Below, one piece after another: positions 3,001 to 9,000 of a stretch of DNA of 23,250 nt. Each line of letters starts with the position of its first letter. The first letter of the stretch is position 1. The DNA comes from a virus (taxonomy: Duplodnaviria; Heunggongvirae; Uroviricota; Caudoviricetes), in the IMG/VR virus record IMGVR_UViG_2778261136_000011; one strand, given 5' to 3'. The position numbers are program-made.

Positions 3001-6000
3001 TGGCTCAAAGACGTACACGAATAAACCCGACGGGAAATCATTGCAGGCTGTATGTTGTTTATTTCCCTGGAATAATGTATTTGCAGATCGGAAAGTACCG
3101 AAGATAACCATTAATGGCAATACGGTGACGTGGTCGAATCTTGAGCAGGGTATGGGATCTTATATTTATACATTCTGGGGATAAGTGTCATGTATGGTTT
3201 GAGCATTATGAAGCCGGATGGCAGCGTATGGATAAGTCCAGGTTTTACGCCGCAGTGTCTGATCAACAAAGGCACCATACCAGCGACTGAAAAGTCTTTT
3301 TTTAAAACATCAATCCCGTCAGGCAAAAGTTGTTTTTTCTTTATCAGAACAGAGAAGAAGGCCGATGTCATGTACACGCATGAACAGATTGATGGATATC
3401 ATGCACTAAGGCTTCATGTAATTGTCAGGGGAACGAACCCTGGTGTTACGACGGTTTATGCTTTCGCGAATATGGTTACTCCACCTTCTGAGTATGGTAT
3501 CGCCATGTATAACCCGGACGGTGAGATGATTTATCATGGCGAAATGATGCTGCTTGACGCGAAGTTAATACCTGTTGATATCAAATTTGAAAAGGACCTT
3601 GGATATCCATGCGCAATCATGCCTGCACTGGTCGGGTATTATAACTGGAAAAGAACTCCTTATGACCGACCGATTTATACCACATCCACTGGCGCTACAG
3701 GAAATAAAATATATTCCTGTGAACATTATTCCGGTGGTGCAACATGGGATATTCGAAAGCCGTATATAGATAAGGTCCTGGTTATTAATACATCAATGTA
3801 TGATTGATAAGAAAATCTATATTAACAAAAACTTTTTATTAGATCGATAAAATATATTTGATTTATATTTATATTAAATAAAGGAAAATCGCGCATTACT
3901 GTACCTTTTAATAACAGGAATAATCTAAAGATGAAAAATATTTATAAGATTATTGCGTGTGCAGTTATTGGGACGAGCATGGTAGCCATGCCAGCACATG
4001 CAGCAGAAGGAGACCATACAATTTCTCTGGGGTATGCGCACTTTCAGTTTCCGGGACTGAAGGATTTTGTAAAGGATGCGACTGCTCATAACAGGGAGAC
4101 TTTCAGTCATTTCGTCAACAGAAACTACTTTTCTTCATTGGGCGAATATACAGATGGTCGGGTCAGTGGATATGAAGGCAAGGATAAAAATCCACAGGGC
4201 ATTAATATCAGGTATCGCTACGAGATAACGGATGATTTTGGCGTTATCACCTCTTTTACATGGACGCGTTCTCTCACTAACTCACAGACATTTATTGATG
4301 TGCAGTCAGCCGATCATAGCAGGAAGATTAAGAATCCGGCAGCTTCTGCCAGAACGGATATCAGGGCGAATTACTGGAGTCTGTTAGCGGGGCCTTCATG
4401 GCGGGTTAATCAGTACATGAGTTTATATGCGATGGCAGGGATGGGCGTTGCTAAAGTTACCGCTGACCTGAAAATTAAGGACAATATTAACAGTAGTGGT
4501 AGATTTTCTGAAAGCAACAGCACGAAAAAAACCTCCCTTGCGTGGGCTGCAGGTGCACAGTTTAACCTGAATGAGAGTGTTACACTGGATGTGGCTTACG
4601 AAGGTTCCGGCTCTGGCGACTGGCGCACGAGTGGCGTTACTGCTGGCATTGGCCTGAAATTCTGACCTGTATCCGGTAACCGTTTACTACCCGCTGTGAT
4701 GGCGGGTTTTTTATTGTCCGTACAGGGCAAAAATCGTAAATTATGCGTGGGTGCCTTTCGGCTGATGGCTGGAGGGTGAACCTGAAGGCCTGATGTGGAA
4801 AGGCCCCGAGTCAACTTAACGTTAACCCGAGGCCCTAACCATCATACCTTAAGCAAGTAGAAGGTTAGCGCCTCTCCACTCAGGAGGCAAGCGCTATGTC
4901 GCAAAAATCGCTTATCACCGTCACAATTTGTATGACGGTTATCTTCACCATCTGGATGTTACACGGCTCGTTGTGTGAGTTCCGGCTGAATTTGTGGGGA
5001 GCGGAGTTTGCGGCGTTCTTACAGTGTAAGCAGTAGGAAAACCGCGACGGGGACGAAAGTCCCCGTCAACTGGTTGCTGAGGTTCAGCCGATATGGCACC
5101 CGTTTCTGGTGAGAGAATGAACGATAAAATTCTCCGGTATATGCAGCGTGTTGTGAGAAATTCCCGCAACCCTGAATTTATGAATGAAGTTAAAGACGCC
5201 TGCCTTAAAAAGCAGGCGTTTTGTTTTGAGGCACCTGATGGCTTTCTGGTGCTGCGTTCTGTGCTCAGTGCTGATGGTATCCCTTATGTTCTGGTGTTGC
5301 TGGGCGTGTGTACGGGGAGTAACAGCGTTGAGCGTTATCTGCCGGAGGTGAAGACATTAACCCGTCTGGCTGGCGGACGTTGGGCTGAATTTCATACGGC
5401 AAGGCGGGGATTTATCCGGCTGGGAAAACGTCTGGGCTTTGAGCGAATGCCGGATGATGAGGATGGCTTCATGGTGTTCAGGATAGCGGTCTGACTGCTA
5501 CAGTTTTCATCATTGTGTTTAAACCAACATTGTAATTCACATTCTGACCCTGCTCCGGCAGGGTTTTTTGTTATCCAGGGGGCCATTATGGGTGGAAGTA
5601 AAGGCGGTGGTGATACCAAAGTAAAACCAACAGCAGCGCAAATAGCACAGGAAGAAGTGGCCTGGAAAGGGTGGCAGGATTACAAAAATATCCTCCGCCC
5701 GGCTGAAGATAACTTCATGGAAAAGGTCGATGACCTTAACAGTGAGCAGCAGTACGACAATATCGCTGGCACAACAAATCTTGGTTATCAGAAACAGTTT
5801 GGTGAAGCGCGAAGGGAGCTGGCGGGTAATCTTGCTCAGTCCGGTGTTGACCCGTCCAGTGGTCGCTTTAACGCGGTAATGAATGCGAACCAGAGTGATC
5901 AGGTAACCGGGCAGATTGACACAACCACACGGGGGCAGGTATCGCAGGCAGATAAGTATGTTGCCGGGCTACAGGATGTTGCAGCTCTCGGTTCAGGTCA

Positions 6001-9000
6001 GAAGGCGGATGCGTTACAGAGTTTTAACTCGCTGGCAGACAGCAGTCTGGCAAAAGCTAAATCGGACGCACAGGCTGCGTTTACGAAACAGCAGGGGCGA
6101 GCCTCTCTTGTTGGCGCTGGTTTGGGTGCGGTAGGTGCATATGCGATGCATAAGGCTGGCGGTAGCGGAGGAAGTGGCGGTGCTAAAACACCTGGCACCG
6201 GCGCTAATGCCATTCAGCATCAGGCTCAGAACTGGAGACTGTGATTATGGAGTACGGTAAATACGAAACACTTGCGAGATACGGTTATACCGGAGCTGCC
6301 CGTCCACAGGGGGACTGGCAGACGTCAGCAGCGCTGACACGCCAACAATACGACGACTGGCGAACCAGATATTTGCCCCGCGTGGCAAGGCTGGCTGACC
6401 TTGGCGAGAACAACAGCCTGATGAATGCACAGCTTGCCCGGGTGGGCGGCCTTGCCACTTCCAGTCTCCGTACAGCGCAGATGGCGCAGGATAACCAGAT
6501 GGCGAGATACGGGGTAAGCCGCCCAGATAATCCCGACAGTAATACGCTGGGGTTACGTAATGCCCTGGCAATTGCTGGCGCGAAAAATGGTATCCGTGAA
6601 GCCGAACAGGATCGCCAGATGAACATACTGACGGGGGCTTCTGCACCGGCAAGACAGAAACTGAGTGTTAGCGGACAACTGGTGGCAGCGTAAGGAGGAA
6701 ATATGGGATACGGTTTACTGGATATTGCAAATCAGTCGCGGCGTGAGGCATTACAGGGAATAAGTGACGCAGACAGACGACGCACAGAGATTGAGGCATC
6801 AAATAAACAACTGGCTGCTCAACAGAAAGCTCAGAAAAAACAGAATATCGGTACGGGCATTGGTACGGGGGCGGCTATTGGCGCATCCGTTGGTGGTCCT
6901 GTTGGCGCTGTTGCTGGTGCAGTAATTGGCGGCATTGCTGGTTCTTTGTTTTAAGGAGTGGTGAATGAGCGGATTTGCACAGGGGTTACTTGCCGGATTC
7001 AGCACTGTTGACCAGGCAATGACCCGTCGTAAAGAGCTTGGTTTGCGTGAGGCACAGCTTGCTCAACAACAGAAAAATAACGAGCGCGATTTTGAATTTG
7101 CGCAGTCTCAGTTTGAGCACCGGAAAGAGAATGATCAGCGTACATATGATCTTAATGTCAGGAATGCTGACCGTGAATATGCGCTGAAAGAGAGGGAACA
7201 CAAAGCAGCGCAGAATTATCGAAATGCGTCACTGGGTATGGAGCAGCAGCGACTCCAGTTGCAGAAATACAACCAGCGACGGCTTGAGTATAACGATATG
7301 CTGGCGCGCGATCAGCCTGTGATGGCTGCGCTTGGAAAGGCTGTGGATGCTGGTGATCGGGATGCGGCAATGCGTCTTTACGGGCAGTTGTCAGAGGGTA
7401 ATCCGCTGAGGCTGATGGCGAATGATGGCTATGCAGCGAAAGCGGGGCAGGCCGTGAACAACCTGCAGAAAATCTTTGATGATAAGCCGGACAGGGCGAT
7501 TGCTTCGCTGAATACCCCGGAAAATCTCGATGTGCTTTCCGGCGTGTTTGCCCCGGAACTACAACAGCGTATTGGCATGCCTGATTCAACCGGGGAAAAG
7601 ACAATAAAAGAGGCCAGGATTGGCAGTATCGTACCGGCGCAGCAGGAAGGGTACGTACTTATTGGTCTTGATCTCACATACAGCGATGGCTCCAGCGCGC
7701 ATAAACCTGTAACAGAATACGGCAGTGCACATCCTGATGATCAAACCGTGCTGGCGATACCCGTTGATAAGGCTGTCGCTCTTGTCAGGGATCGCAGTAA
7801 ATTCGCGGAAATTTCGAAAAATTACGGTTATTTCATGCCGCAGCAGCAGGGACTTTCTCTGGCGAAACTTCAGGAAGGAGCCAGCAACGTAGCGGCGGAC
7901 GCGATCAAGAATGGCCGTGATGCTCAGGCTGAGGTGGATGAATATTATGCTGCGAATGGTTCACAGCCGCATCAACAGAAAATTCAGCAACAAAAACTTC
8001 AGCAACAGGTTATCAACTGGGCGGGAGATGATCCTGATAAGCTGTTATTTGCCAGAAATGTAGCGGCCCGTCAGCCTGAAATGCTGGAACCTCAGAATCA
8101 GAAATTGCTGGAGAACGGGTATGCGAATTTTCTCCGTATTCAAAAGGCCAGGGGGGAACAGGCCAGAGATGAAAGTGCTTCATCTGCATCTCAGTTTATC
8201 CGTGGACTGAAACAGAATTACGCCCAGTAATTCACGATATTCCATTAACACCATTTCCTGATGCCCGGCCATTGTGCCGGGTTTTTTTATGGAGTCTGTA
8301 TGGCTTATTCCGATGAACAGCGCCCTGAAGCGCAATTTGGTAACCAGAACCGTAACAGCCTGAACATTCAGCAGCCTGGCGAGACAGACAGCTATGATGC
8401 GTTTTTCTCCGACCCCAATCGCTGGAAGGACAACAGCACGTCGTTCAGCCTGGGCGATGTATTACCAACTATAGGGAAAGGTGTCGCCCAGTCTGTCCGC
8501 GGAACAGGGGAAATGGCCCGTGGACTCGGTGATGCGATGATTCAGAGCCCAGTGAAAACAGGGGCGCGTATTTTAAATGAGTTCAGCCGTATGGGGCTGC
8601 CGGGTGTCGCAACTGTTCAGGATATTTTTGTCGGCGGCAGCAAGGGGGGGGATGAGGTCATCGACACTCTGCCTGATGGAAAAAACGCGGTTACTGATAC
8701 TGTTGGTAAAGGTCTGAAGGCAAGCGGTAAGGCAGTCAGTGATGGTGCTAAAGTATCGGATGAATGGCTGACCGGTAAGATGTCGCCGGGTGCTGTTCGT
8801 GCGCTGAATACGCCGATGACCGAAGGCTATGATGATTCTGCGGTCTGGGTGGCGAAGGGTGTAAACCTGATTGGTGCGCTTGTACCTGATATGGTTGCTG
8901 GCGGTGTGGCTAAAAAGGTGGGTGATGTCACACTGCGAAAAATGCTGACCGCCGGGCTGGAGAAAAAATACATCGCGGCAGGGATGCAGCCGGAAAGAGC

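Follow-up and report, generated by a model that had tools for sequence, protein, structure and literature searches.

Short-tailed Shiga-toxin (Stx)-converting phages, which spread Shiga-toxin genes among Escherichia coli, must bring their DNA across the cell envelope after binding to BamA. A cassette of four genes that may serve this step lies at positions 5588-8230 of a 23,250-nucleotide (nt) stretch of Caudoviricetes DNA (IMG/VR record IMGVR_UViG_2778261136_000011), called the window below. The four genes lie just upstream of a giant open reading frame (ORF) and encode proteins of 218, 148, 83 and 421 amino acids (aa). These proteins are likely carried within the head and expelled by way of the tail on needle release, and the cassette and the giant protein are concrete candidates for the DNA-delivery step. 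An ejection or internal-virion set had been proposed from the sequence alone (the original prediction). This proposal is supported by the virion proteome of phage phi24B, the absence of the proteins from the phi24B cryo-electron microscopy (cryo-EM) model, the phenotype of an ORF79 deletion in phage Sp5, a gene position like that of the ejection genes of phage P22 and a tail of the 83-aa protein that resembles P22 gp7.

The genes, the knock-out phenotypes and the virion peptides have already been published. The assignment of the four proteins as an ejection set is new, no earlier account having been found in the literature, and the same holds for the extension of the module to an upstream 133-aa gene, the synteny in Vibrio, Aeromonas and metagenomic relatives, the homology to gp70 of phage Bcep22, the gp7-type tail of the 83-aa protein and the idea of a split paralogue.

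The cassette and its genes

The window comes from a short-tailed Stx-converting phage of the Sepvirinae, and the cassette is part of its late region. The surrounding 3 kb match 186 phage records at an identity of at least 80%, all of them short-tailed Stx-converting phages and Shigella relatives; the best match is the Stx1a phage Stx1_2409 (99.1%), followed by POCJ13 (96.8%). In the RefSeq record of POCJ13 (Sepvirinae), the late region comprises head genes, a tail fibre, a 541-aa protein, a 422-aa 'tail fiber', two small genes, Lom and a 133-aa gene, after which come four genes named 'hypothetical' or 'bacteriocin' and an 'LPD5 domain-containing' giant. The gene order on the plus strand of the window is identical. 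The arrangement of the original prediction, with four ORFs directly upstream of the giant ORF, was borne out on the plus strand:

5588-6244, plus strand: 218-aa gene, ATG start (Sp5 ORF76/ECs1238; phi24B gp51)
6247-6693, plus strand: 148-aa gene, ATG start (Sp5 ORF77; phi24B gp50)
6703-6954, plus strand: 83-aa gene (Sp5 ORF78; 'bacteriocin' in RefSeq)
6965-8230, plus strand: 421-aa gene (Sp5 ORF79/ECs1241; phi24B gp48)

A mechanical ORF list contains longer versions that start at TTG 5513 and GTG 6241; the shorter starts are preferred because the alignment with distant homologues and the annotations of Sp5 and phi24B agree on them. The cassette is tightly packed, as had been claimed, with gaps of 2, 9 and 10 nt and a GGAG-type Shine-Dalgarno sequence before each gene. 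The ORFs do not overlap, and the translational coupling that had also been proposed can only be presumed. The ratio of nonsynonymous to synonymous substitution rates (dN/dS) against four Stx-phage relatives is 0.03-0.08 for the 218-aa gene, 0.02-0.10 for the 148-aa gene, 0.11-0.12 for the 83-aa gene and 0.17-0.33 for the 421-aa gene, the fastest-evolving of the cassette. The four ORFs are therefore genuine genes under purifying selection. Their Gly/Ala/Gln-rich composition was confirmed: Gly, Ala and Gln together make up 39.0, 32.4, 43.4 and 30.2% of the 218-, 148-, 83- and 421-aa proteins, compared to 22.2% in the other plus-strand ORFs of the window. Cysteine is absent from all four cassette proteins.

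Almost all members of the 218-, 148- and 83-aa families start with Met-Gly (MGKGG.., MGYAADT.. and MGYGL.., respectively), and the 148-aa protein of Stx phages carries a 14-residue N-terminal extension ahead of this motif. The shared start could be an incorporation signal or a feature of translation initiation.

Virion proteome and structure

Published work on homologues with 88-98% identity has shown the presence of the cassette proteins in virions, their absence from the resolved structure and the phenotypes of their knock-outs. The phi24B homologues of the 218-, 148-, 83- and 421-aa proteins are 97.7, 98.6, 95.2 and 88.1% identical to the window proteins (phi24B GenBank record, whose coordinates agree). 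Purified virions, where the original prediction had proposed to look for the proteins, contain all four of them according to the supplementary proteome of the phi24B preprint (bioRxiv 10.64898/2026.04.10.717836). The 421-aa gp48, labelled 'Transcription factor?', is represented by 1634 peptide-spectrum matches (PSMs) that peak in gel slice EA1815, the major capsid protein peaking directly below it in EA1816, and the 218-aa gp51 by 523 PSMs with a peak in slice EA1825, beside the peak of adaptor gp64 in EA1826 (10.64898/2026.04.10.717836). These peaks are consistent with intact proteins of ~47 kDa and ~22 kDa, respectively. The 148-aa gp50 accounts for 129 PSMs, 83 of them in sample EA1833, and the 83-aa frame for 13 PSMs (10.64898/2026.04.10.717836). 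A low count is expected for the latter, since only four of its tryptic peptides, 7-13 aa long, are likely to be detectable and its 37-residue tail is devoid of K and R.

Copy numbers were estimated from the PSMs per residue in the EA1833 column, scaled to 12 portal copies and with approximate lengths for capsid and adaptor proteins; in our reading of the table, EA1833 is assumed to be an in-solution digest. These crude spectral counts give ~37 copies per virion of the 421-aa protein, ~32 of the 218-aa protein, ~48 of the 148-aa protein, ~6 of the 83-aa protein and ~23 of the giant protein. For proteins of known copy number, the estimates deviated by no more than about two-fold for the nozzle (6.7; true 6), the spike (22; true 18), adaptor gp64 (11.5; true 12), the needle (6.5; true 3) and the capsid protein (356; true 535), whereas the value for adaptor gp62 was wrong (2.8; true 12).

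About 40% of the phi24B particles in the preparation had spontaneously ejected (10.64898/2026.04.10.717836). The phi24B tail was resolved by cryo-EM as portal gp72, adaptors gp64 and gp62, nozzle gp57, spikes gp61 and needle gp56, and no cassette protein is found in the model, which comprises these components and the capsid proteins (10.64898/2026.04.10.717836). The main text of the preprint does not mention gp48-gp51; it reports the detection of 'a transcription regulation factor' as well as 'a homolog of a bacteriocin' and dismisses both, by annotation, as contaminants (10.64898/2026.04.10.717836). The giant protein gp47 is the second most abundant virion protein by PSMs (10.64898/2026.04.10.717836), and the authors proposed it as an encapsidated ejection protein, being abundant in virions and invisible in the map (10.64898/2026.04.10.717836).

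Knock-out phenotypes

Mondal et al. (2016) deleted the late genes of Sp5 singly (PMC5155283). ORF76-ORF80 of this phage encode proteins of 218, 148, 83, 421 and 2793 aa and are the counterparts of the cassette and the giant gene (PMC5155283, supplement). Mutants lacking ORF79 or ORF80 formed neither plaques nor lysogens and were complemented in trans (PMC5155283); their particles had normal heads and wild-type amounts of DNase-resistant DNA (PMC5155283). The ORF76 mutant still formed plaques, but its lysogenisation was strongly reduced, with lysogens obtained from concentrated lysates only (PMC5155283). A requirement for infectivity without a role in packaging is hence seen for ORF79, in part for ORF76, and not for ORF77 or ORF78 when singly deleted. 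The ejection-set assignment leads to a reinterpretation of the 'tail formation' phenotypes that were reported for Sp5 in 2016.

Synteny in distant relatives

The present analysis adds conserved synteny and remote homologies to the published data. By tblastn, the 421-aa and the 218-aa proteins were each found in 291 phage records of the same make-up, namely 186 Stx-type phages, 104 marine Vibrio phages (~60 kb) and the Aeromonas phage phiARM81mr. The annotated order in phiARM81mr and Vibrio phage D80 is nozzle, central fibre, small gene, ~200-aa, ~120-aa, ~80-aa ('bacteriocin') and ~466-aa genes and a giant of 3066-3190 aa, and every gene correspondence, including that of the 133-aa gene, was confirmed by pairwise phmmer comparison. 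A scan of IMG/VR with a 10-sequence alignment of 421-aa relatives returned 80 loci, 35 of them distant (26-35% identity). Iterative searches recovered nozzle, needle, 133-, 218-, 148-, 83-, 421-aa and giant genes at these 35 loci, with order and orientation kept in almost all of the complete loci. Many relatives lack the Stx-phage genes for Lom, gp54 and gp55. Homologues of the nozzle occur in 77 further phages, including Ralstonia GP4-like, Burkholderia Bcep22-like, Ochrobactrum and Pseudomonas phages.

Podovirus ejection proteins have been defined by clustered genes in a small-medium-large series, a need for infectivity and plastic structures (Swanson et al., review). The cassette genes are clustered in this way, in a small-medium-large series beside the needle gene. 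In P22 the order is gp10 (nozzle-like), needle gp26, gp14 (151 aa), gp7 (229 aa), gp20 (471 aa) and gp16 (609 aa), which is the same series as needle, 133, 218, [148, 83], 421 and giant in the window; the product of the small P22 gene behind the needle gene, gp14, is not a virion protein. The likeness extends to the particle. A portal with a barrel is present in both phages, and the P22 E-proteins are internal, unordered, present in ~12-30 copies and invisible in reconstructions, a description that the cassette proteins fit. P22 differs in that it lacks the two extra small genes (148 and 83 aa) and in that its last gene encodes the 609-aa gp16 instead of a 2794-aa polyvalent protein. Moreover, no leader of the kind that is cleaved by OpdA is present in the window proteins, the 218-aa gene is not strictly essential, the 421-aa sequence is unrelated to gp20, and the window proteins belong neither to Pfam P22_gp7 nor to Inj_translocase.

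The 218-aa protein and Bcep22 gp70

The 218-aa protein starts with a conserved MGxGG motif and contains, at residues ~172-190 (nt 6101-6157), a hydrophobic segment rich in Gly and Ala; it matches phrog_8003, 'virion structural protein', at 2e-8. A hidden Markov model (HMM) of its family matches Bcep22 gp70 with an E value of 7.5e-17 (hhalign probability 97%), the score of 50.3 bits standing against at most 4.9 in 500 shuffles. The family HMM of the 148-aa protein also matches gp70, at residues 118-224 (E 1.4e-7, hhalign 79%; 21.1 bits against at most 9.2 in 500 shuffles), which is the same part of gp70 that the 218-family match covers. By these profile comparisons, Bcep22 gp70 qualifies as a true homologue of both families.

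The Bcep22 (Lessievirus) module runs from nozzle gp67 through gp68, acyltransferase gp69, gp70 (331 aa), a 3'-phosphoadenosine-5'-phosphosulfate (PAPS) reductase and gp74 (532 aa) to the DarB-like gp75 (4602 aa). Its nozzle is homologous to that of the window (27% identity), and the small-medium-giant layout is alike. It differs in that one gp70, which bears a transmembrane or signal segment at its N-terminus, stands in place of the 218-, 148- and 83-aa trio, in the inserted PAPS reductase gene and in a giant with DarB-like helicase/methylase domains. CsCl-purified virions of the Bcep22-like phage JC1 contain gp64 (gp70 homologue, 45% coverage), gp68 (gp74 homologue) and the giant gp69 (PMC9144972), and the acetyltransferase is not among their proteins (PMC9144972). 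The JC1 proteome is independent support that the module encodes virion proteins.

In relation to P22, the 218-aa protein is a counterpart of gp7 by position and size, the two proteins being of the same size class and encoded at the same place. Their N-termini are alike (MGGSKGGG...AQ...W...L.P in the 218-aa protein, KGGKGG...AQ...F...LKP in mature gp7), and a gp7 HMM matches one 218-family member over its full length with an E value of 0.0027 among 1582 ORFs. Although rich in Gly and Ala, the 218-aa tail is unlike the gp7 tail, which ends in G-x-L-G-S-L-F. On this evidence the link between the 218-aa protein and gp7 is at most suggestive.

A gp7-type tail and a possible split paralogue

The 83-aa protein consists of a charged N-terminal part followed by a 37-residue Gly/Ala/Ile/Val tail (residues 47-83, nt 6841-6951) that ends in ...GGIAGSLF. 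The Gly-zipper segment that the original prediction had placed at its end can be recognised in the sequence. The tail reaches a Kyte-Doolittle maximum of 1.69 over 19 residues, repeated GxxxG is visible in the hydrophobic stretch, and Pfam Gly-zipper_YMGG is matched by 10 of the 11 family members, with the window protein (E 9.1e-6, 25.7 bits) just under the cut-off of 28.9.

This tail resembles that of gp7. The C-terminal ends are ...AAIGGGIGLLGSLF in P22 gp7 and ...GAVIGGIAGSLF in the 83-aa protein, and the 83-aa family shares with gp7 the C-terminal Gly-zipper tail ending in GSLF. In the P22-like phage Sf6 (Lederbergvirus), the ejection proteins gp7, gp20 and gp16 have the counterparts gp11, gp12 and gp13; tube formation has been assayed for gp12. 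In hhalign comparisons of the 83-aa family with gp7, the probability was 85% for the single gp7 sequence and 93.5% for a family from nine P22-like phages, with an alignment restricted to the 18 C-terminal residues in the second case. Among 608 ORFs of the nine P22-like loci, the gp7 homologues were the only matches of the 83-family HMM, Sf6 gp11 with an E value of 4.9e-4. Sf6 gp11 scores 15.9 bits with this HMM compared to at most 0.5 in 500 shuffles of its C-terminus; residue order and not composition alone therefore underlies the likeness. Pfam P22_gp7 (PF25688) is matched below threshold by 7 of the 11 members of the 83-aa family (best 2.3e-4), and neither the 218- nor the 83-aa protein of the window matches it. 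Of the kinship with P22 gp7, gp20 and gp16 that had been proposed for checking, profile comparison recovered the part that concerns gp7, in the tail of the 83-aa protein, and found no similarity to gp20 or gp16.

In a search of 1582 ORFs, positions 136-184 of the 218-family HMM also matched 83-aa family members (E 1.2e-5). When aligned directly onto the 218 family by hhalign, the 148 family falls on residues 21-89 and the 83 family on residues 132-180, with probabilities of 22-28%; the value for the co-linear 148-to-218 alignment is 28%. As judged from these profiles, the 148-aa protein is probably paralogous to the 218-aa/gp70 family in its N-terminal and central part. The gp70, 218-family and hhalign matches therefore suggest that the 148- and 83-aa proteins, with 231 residues together, are the two halves of a diverged second gp7/gp70-like copy.

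A wider scheme may be entertained tentatively, with more doubt than confidence. A gp7-type protein would have founded a much larger family, not linked before, that includes the 218-aa protein and Bcep22 gp70, and in Stx-, Vibrio- and Aeromonas-type phages a second copy would have been split into the 148-aa protein (N-terminal and central part) and the 83-aa protein (C-terminal tail). The conduit would be seeded by a hetero-oligomer of the whole and the split copies, and an ancient ejectosome, with the giant polyvalent protein in the gp16 slot, would be common to P22-like (T=7) and T=9 GP4/Bcep22/Stx-type podoviruses. If this holds, partial redundancy of the whole and split copies would account for the tolerance of Sp5 to the loss of ORF76, ORF77 or ORF78 alone.

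In one database protein (P0136), the N-terminal half of an 83-aa-type protein (MGYGLIDIASQTRQQALQG...) is fused directly to a 421-aa-type protein. The fusion may be natural or an artefact of frameshift or assembly; if real, it indicates a physical partnership of the 83- and 421-aa proteins.

The 421-aa protein

The 421-aa protein has the conserved N-terminus GFAQGLLAGF. An AlphaFold2 (AF2) model built from a 38-sequence alignment has a mean predicted local distance difference test (pLDDT) score of 83.4, compared to 68 for the single-sequence model. It predicts one helix from residue 4 to 128 (nt 6974-7348) and, at ~204-266 (nt 7574-7762), a conserved beta core of small size; the C-terminal region is again helical. 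The predicted helix is 18.8 nm long and shows a significant hydrophobic periodicity of 3.5 residues, as in a heptad repeat. By its place in the gene series, the protein is the positional counterpart of P22 gp20 and T7 gp15. The T7 proteins gp14, gp15 and gp16 are alike in functional class and in their small-medium-large gene series, and the long helical model would suit a periplasmic tube; no sequence or fold similarity to the cassette proteins was found among them or other solved ejectosome chains.

The family is small: an exhaustive search of 1.84 billion representative proteins yielded 62 clusters (50% identity), and in a word-indexed protein search the best 120 matches were all near-identical E. 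coli prophage copies. Its N-terminus matches that of Bcep22 gp74 (domain E 3e-4). No Pfam family is matched, including Inj_translocase (PF16928), and hhalign gave at most 1.8% against gp20. Profile-profile comparison likewise revealed no similarity of the 421-aa protein to gp20, of the 133-aa protein to gp14 or of any family to gp16, and sequence and profile searches of the PDB with all four families returned nothing significant. Among the candidates that were set aside, the likeness of GFAQGLLAGF to the gp20 N-terminus GGFLAGIG is not significant (gp20 ranked 8th, E 5.3), weak PDB matches of the Gly tail, one to a tape measure protein and one to a cargo protein of crAss phage, seem to reflect composition, and PhiXacm4-11 is irrelevant, being a T7-like phage according to its preprint.

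The amino-acid identity of the 421-aa gene among Stx phages is 75-92%, compared to 87-99% for the three preceding cassette genes. Relative to one 86%-identical homologue, the differences of the window protein cluster in the long helix (~residues 46-70) and beyond residue 290. Mosaic exchange or adaptation to the host envelope may account for this variability.

A model for ejection

From these data we infer ejection, membrane insertion and an assignment of the proteins to parts of a conduit. The 133-aa gene, the four cassette genes and the giant gene would make up one module for internal virion (ejection) proteins in short-tailed Stx phages. The four cassette proteins would be loaded into the T=9 head in roughly tens of copies each, without fixed symmetric positions. 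On release of the needle at the cell surface they would exit through the portal-tail channel, before or together with the DNA and the giant protein. The gp7-like proteins, that is the 218-aa protein and the presumed split paralogue of 148 and 83 aa, would then seed the conduit by inserting into a membrane, a task for their Gly-zipper and Gly/Ala-rich tails. The 421-aa protein may oligomerise via its predicted ~19-nm heptad helix to form the periplasm-spanning part, as P22 gp20 and T7 gp15 do, and the giant protein would take the role of gp16 and carry enzymatic and anti-defence cargo.

A precedent for a giant protein in an ejection set is found in the N4-like ejectosome of a giant virion RNA polymerase and two ejection proteins. 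N4-like phages (Schitoviridae; N4, DEV) resemble the phage of the window as T=9 podoviruses that encapsidate a giant (~3400-3500 aa) multidomain protein and expel it with smaller ejection proteins. They differ in that two small partners are present instead of four, and the window proteins are without sequence or fold similarity to theirs. The giant of the window carries no RNA polymerase but LPD5, LPD1, MuF_C and LPD38 domains. The links of the Stx, Vibrio, Aeromonas and Bcep22 modules to the P22 system mean that P22 methods such as bubblegrams, E-protein release assays and cryo-electron tomography can be transferred to them.

Several observations weigh against an ejection role. The 421-aa protein lacks sequence or fold similarity to P22 gp20, T7 gp15 and solved ejection proteins in Pfam, PDB, fold and profile searches. 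The direct comparison of the 218-aa family with gp7 is not significant (hhalign probability 3-12%), and no 218-family member matches Pfam P22_gp7. The classical hydropathy threshold for a membrane segment is passed by the tail of the 83-aa protein only. In Sp5, ORF77 and ORF78 are individually dispensable and ORF76 is not strictly essential (PMC5155283), whereas gp7 is essential in P22. The copy numbers are crude spectral counts from one supplementary table, with a calibration that is about four-fold off for adaptor gp62. For all four cassette proteins, exit from the particle or entry into membranes is something we infer. Finally, Mondal et al. called ORF79 and ORF80 'tail formation' genes, as an anti-tail-fibre antibody left the mutant particles unlabelled (data not shown; PMC5155283).

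Alternative explanations

The first alternative takes the cassette proteins as accessory factors of the giant protein, comparable to Hdf, DarA, DdrA and Ulx, which are required for the loading of DarB in phage P1. Their task in the procapsid would be the recruitment, folding or organisation of the giant protein, with which they would travel as anti-defence cargo without forming a DNA conduit. Such a role would account for the strict co-occurrence with a giant polyvalent or DarB-like protein at every locus examined, including Bcep22 and JC1, and for the internal, unordered state of the proteins in the virion, and the authors of the JC1 study suggested that unknown virion proteins may be the missing Dar partners (PMC9144972). 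Yet the mutants lacking ORF79 or ORF80 were wholly non-infectious on the producing K-12 background, where anti-restriction is not needed, and position and tail motif match the E-proteins of P22, a phage without a giant cargo. As a replacement for ejection this reading is unlikely, and the two roles are compatible with each other.

Tail assembly, the published reading of Sp5 ORF79 and ORF80, would make the proteins completion factors or minor tail components. The particles lacking ORF79 or ORF80 were not gold-labelled by an antibody against ORF67 (the fibre) despite normal DNA packaging, and the cassette lies in the tail-gene region. The immuno-electron microscopy result is negative data, not shown in PMC5155283, and every tail component of the phi24B cryo-EM model is one of six other proteins. 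The ~37 copies of gp48 per virion, by the crude estimate, exceed any tail ring. Homology to tail-fibre assembly or non-structural proteins, against which the original prediction was to be checked, was found in none of the sequence, profile and fold searches, nor was similarity to tail chaperones. We consider a role in tail assembly quite improbable. An indirect effect is possible, in which internal proteins are needed to retain the DNA or to stabilise the portal vertex and thereby keep the tail attached.

That the 421- and 83-aa proteins are non-structural contaminants, a transcription factor and a bacteriocin as database records and the phi24B preprint label them, can hardly be credited and has already been largely refuted: the former label traces to an old GenBank note of weak similarity on the phi24B protein ('similar to putative transcription initiation factor and seryl tRNA synthetase') and the protein has no DNA-binding or other Pfam/NCBIfam domain, while the latter, a RefSeq name, is accompanied by a weak match to Pfam Bacteriocin_IIc (9.8e-4; 19.5 bits against a cut-off of 27.1) that covers the Gly-rich tail only, with no double-glycine leader in the protein and no immunity or transporter gene nearby. 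In addition, gp48 exceeds the portal in PSMs per residue and forms a discrete gel band, and the 421-aa gene is essential for infectivity and is kept in the structural module of marine Vibrio and Aeromonas phages. Assignment of the proteins to an internal ejection set corrects the two labels behind their dismissal in the phi24B virion study.

Flanking genes and signals

The cassette is flanked by the following features, of which the hairpins are putative and were obtained by a consensus scan:

5093-5494, plus strand: 133-aa gene (Sp5 ORF75; phi24B vb_24B_43), first member of the syntenic block, outside 5588-8230
5546-5572, plus strand: terminator-like hairpin and T-run between the 133-aa gene and the cassette
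8263-8289, plus strand: terminator-like hairpin and T-run within the 69 nt that separate the 421-aa gene from the giant gene
8300-16684, plus strand: giant polyvalent gene, 2794 aa (Sp5 ORF80; phi24B gp47), at the gp16 position of the module

Homologues of the 133-aa gene lie directly upstream of the 218-like gene in Aeromonas phage phiARM81mr, Vibrio phage D80 and nearly all distant IMG/VR loci, and its dN/dS is 0.07-0.08. The position equals that of P22 gp14 and of the Bcep22 acetyltransferase (acyltransferase gp69). The protein has no Pfam match and no recognisable domain, and a GNAT- or DUF2824-like identity (as for P22 gp14) is unsupported by Pfam and profile comparisons. It is not listed in the examined part of the phi24B virion proteome table (10.64898/2026.04.10.717836), and deletion of Sp5 ORF75 caused no phenotype (PMC5155283). 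The 133-aa protein is probably not a virion component; an assembly or accessory factor is possible.

The giant neighbour is a polyvalent protein with several domains in one polypeptide, encoded among virion genes, and Pfam LPD5, LPD1, MuF_C and LPD38 are all matched above threshold. Phage polyvalent proteins are encoded among virion genes and have been predicted to be injected (Iyer et al., 2017). The longest version of the ORF starts at ATG 8261 and runs through the hairpin at 8263-8289. ATG 8300 is taken as the true start because the N-terminus MAYSDEQRPE... is conserved in distant relatives, with the consensus M(A/T)Y(S/D).(E/Q)Q.RPE.Q...N.NR..LNIQQPGE. The spacer ahead of it (8231-8299) measures 69 nt in the window and 0.1-3.4 kb in relatives, where it holds unrelated ORFs including 290-400-aa proteins (loci L050, L059, L066, L074 and L077). 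It is therefore regarded as an insertion slot, or moron hot spot, inside the module.

Further upstream, at 1-3807 of the window, the 541-aa protein is the tail nozzle (phi24B gp57) and the 422-aa protein the central needle (gp56); the nozzle is labelled 'internal virion protein' by PHROGs and in some records. The needle gene is followed by two small genes of 92 aa ('outer membrane protein') and 205 aa ('membrane associated protein'), which correspond to the gp55/gp54 pair; this pair has been proposed as the BamA binder at the needle tip (phi24B preprint, 10.64898/2026.04.10.717836). In POCJ13, a 46-aa 'MokW-like host killing' ORF is found between lom and the 133-aa gene, in the stretch equivalent to ~4700-5090 of the window, and this stretch may be the remnant of a hok/mok-type toxin-antitoxin system. 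Terminator-like hairpins occur in the window at 4689-4707 (plus strand), 5045-5068 (minus strand) and 5196-5219 (minus strand).

Downstream, in the region 16700-23250, the GC skew changes its sign at ~16.7 kb and the genes past the giant ORF are on the minus strand; in POCJ13 the minus-strand genes past the giant are DUF551, Ea22-like, DUF4752 and Ant. From the switch of skew and strand it therefore follows that the giant gene ends the late operon.

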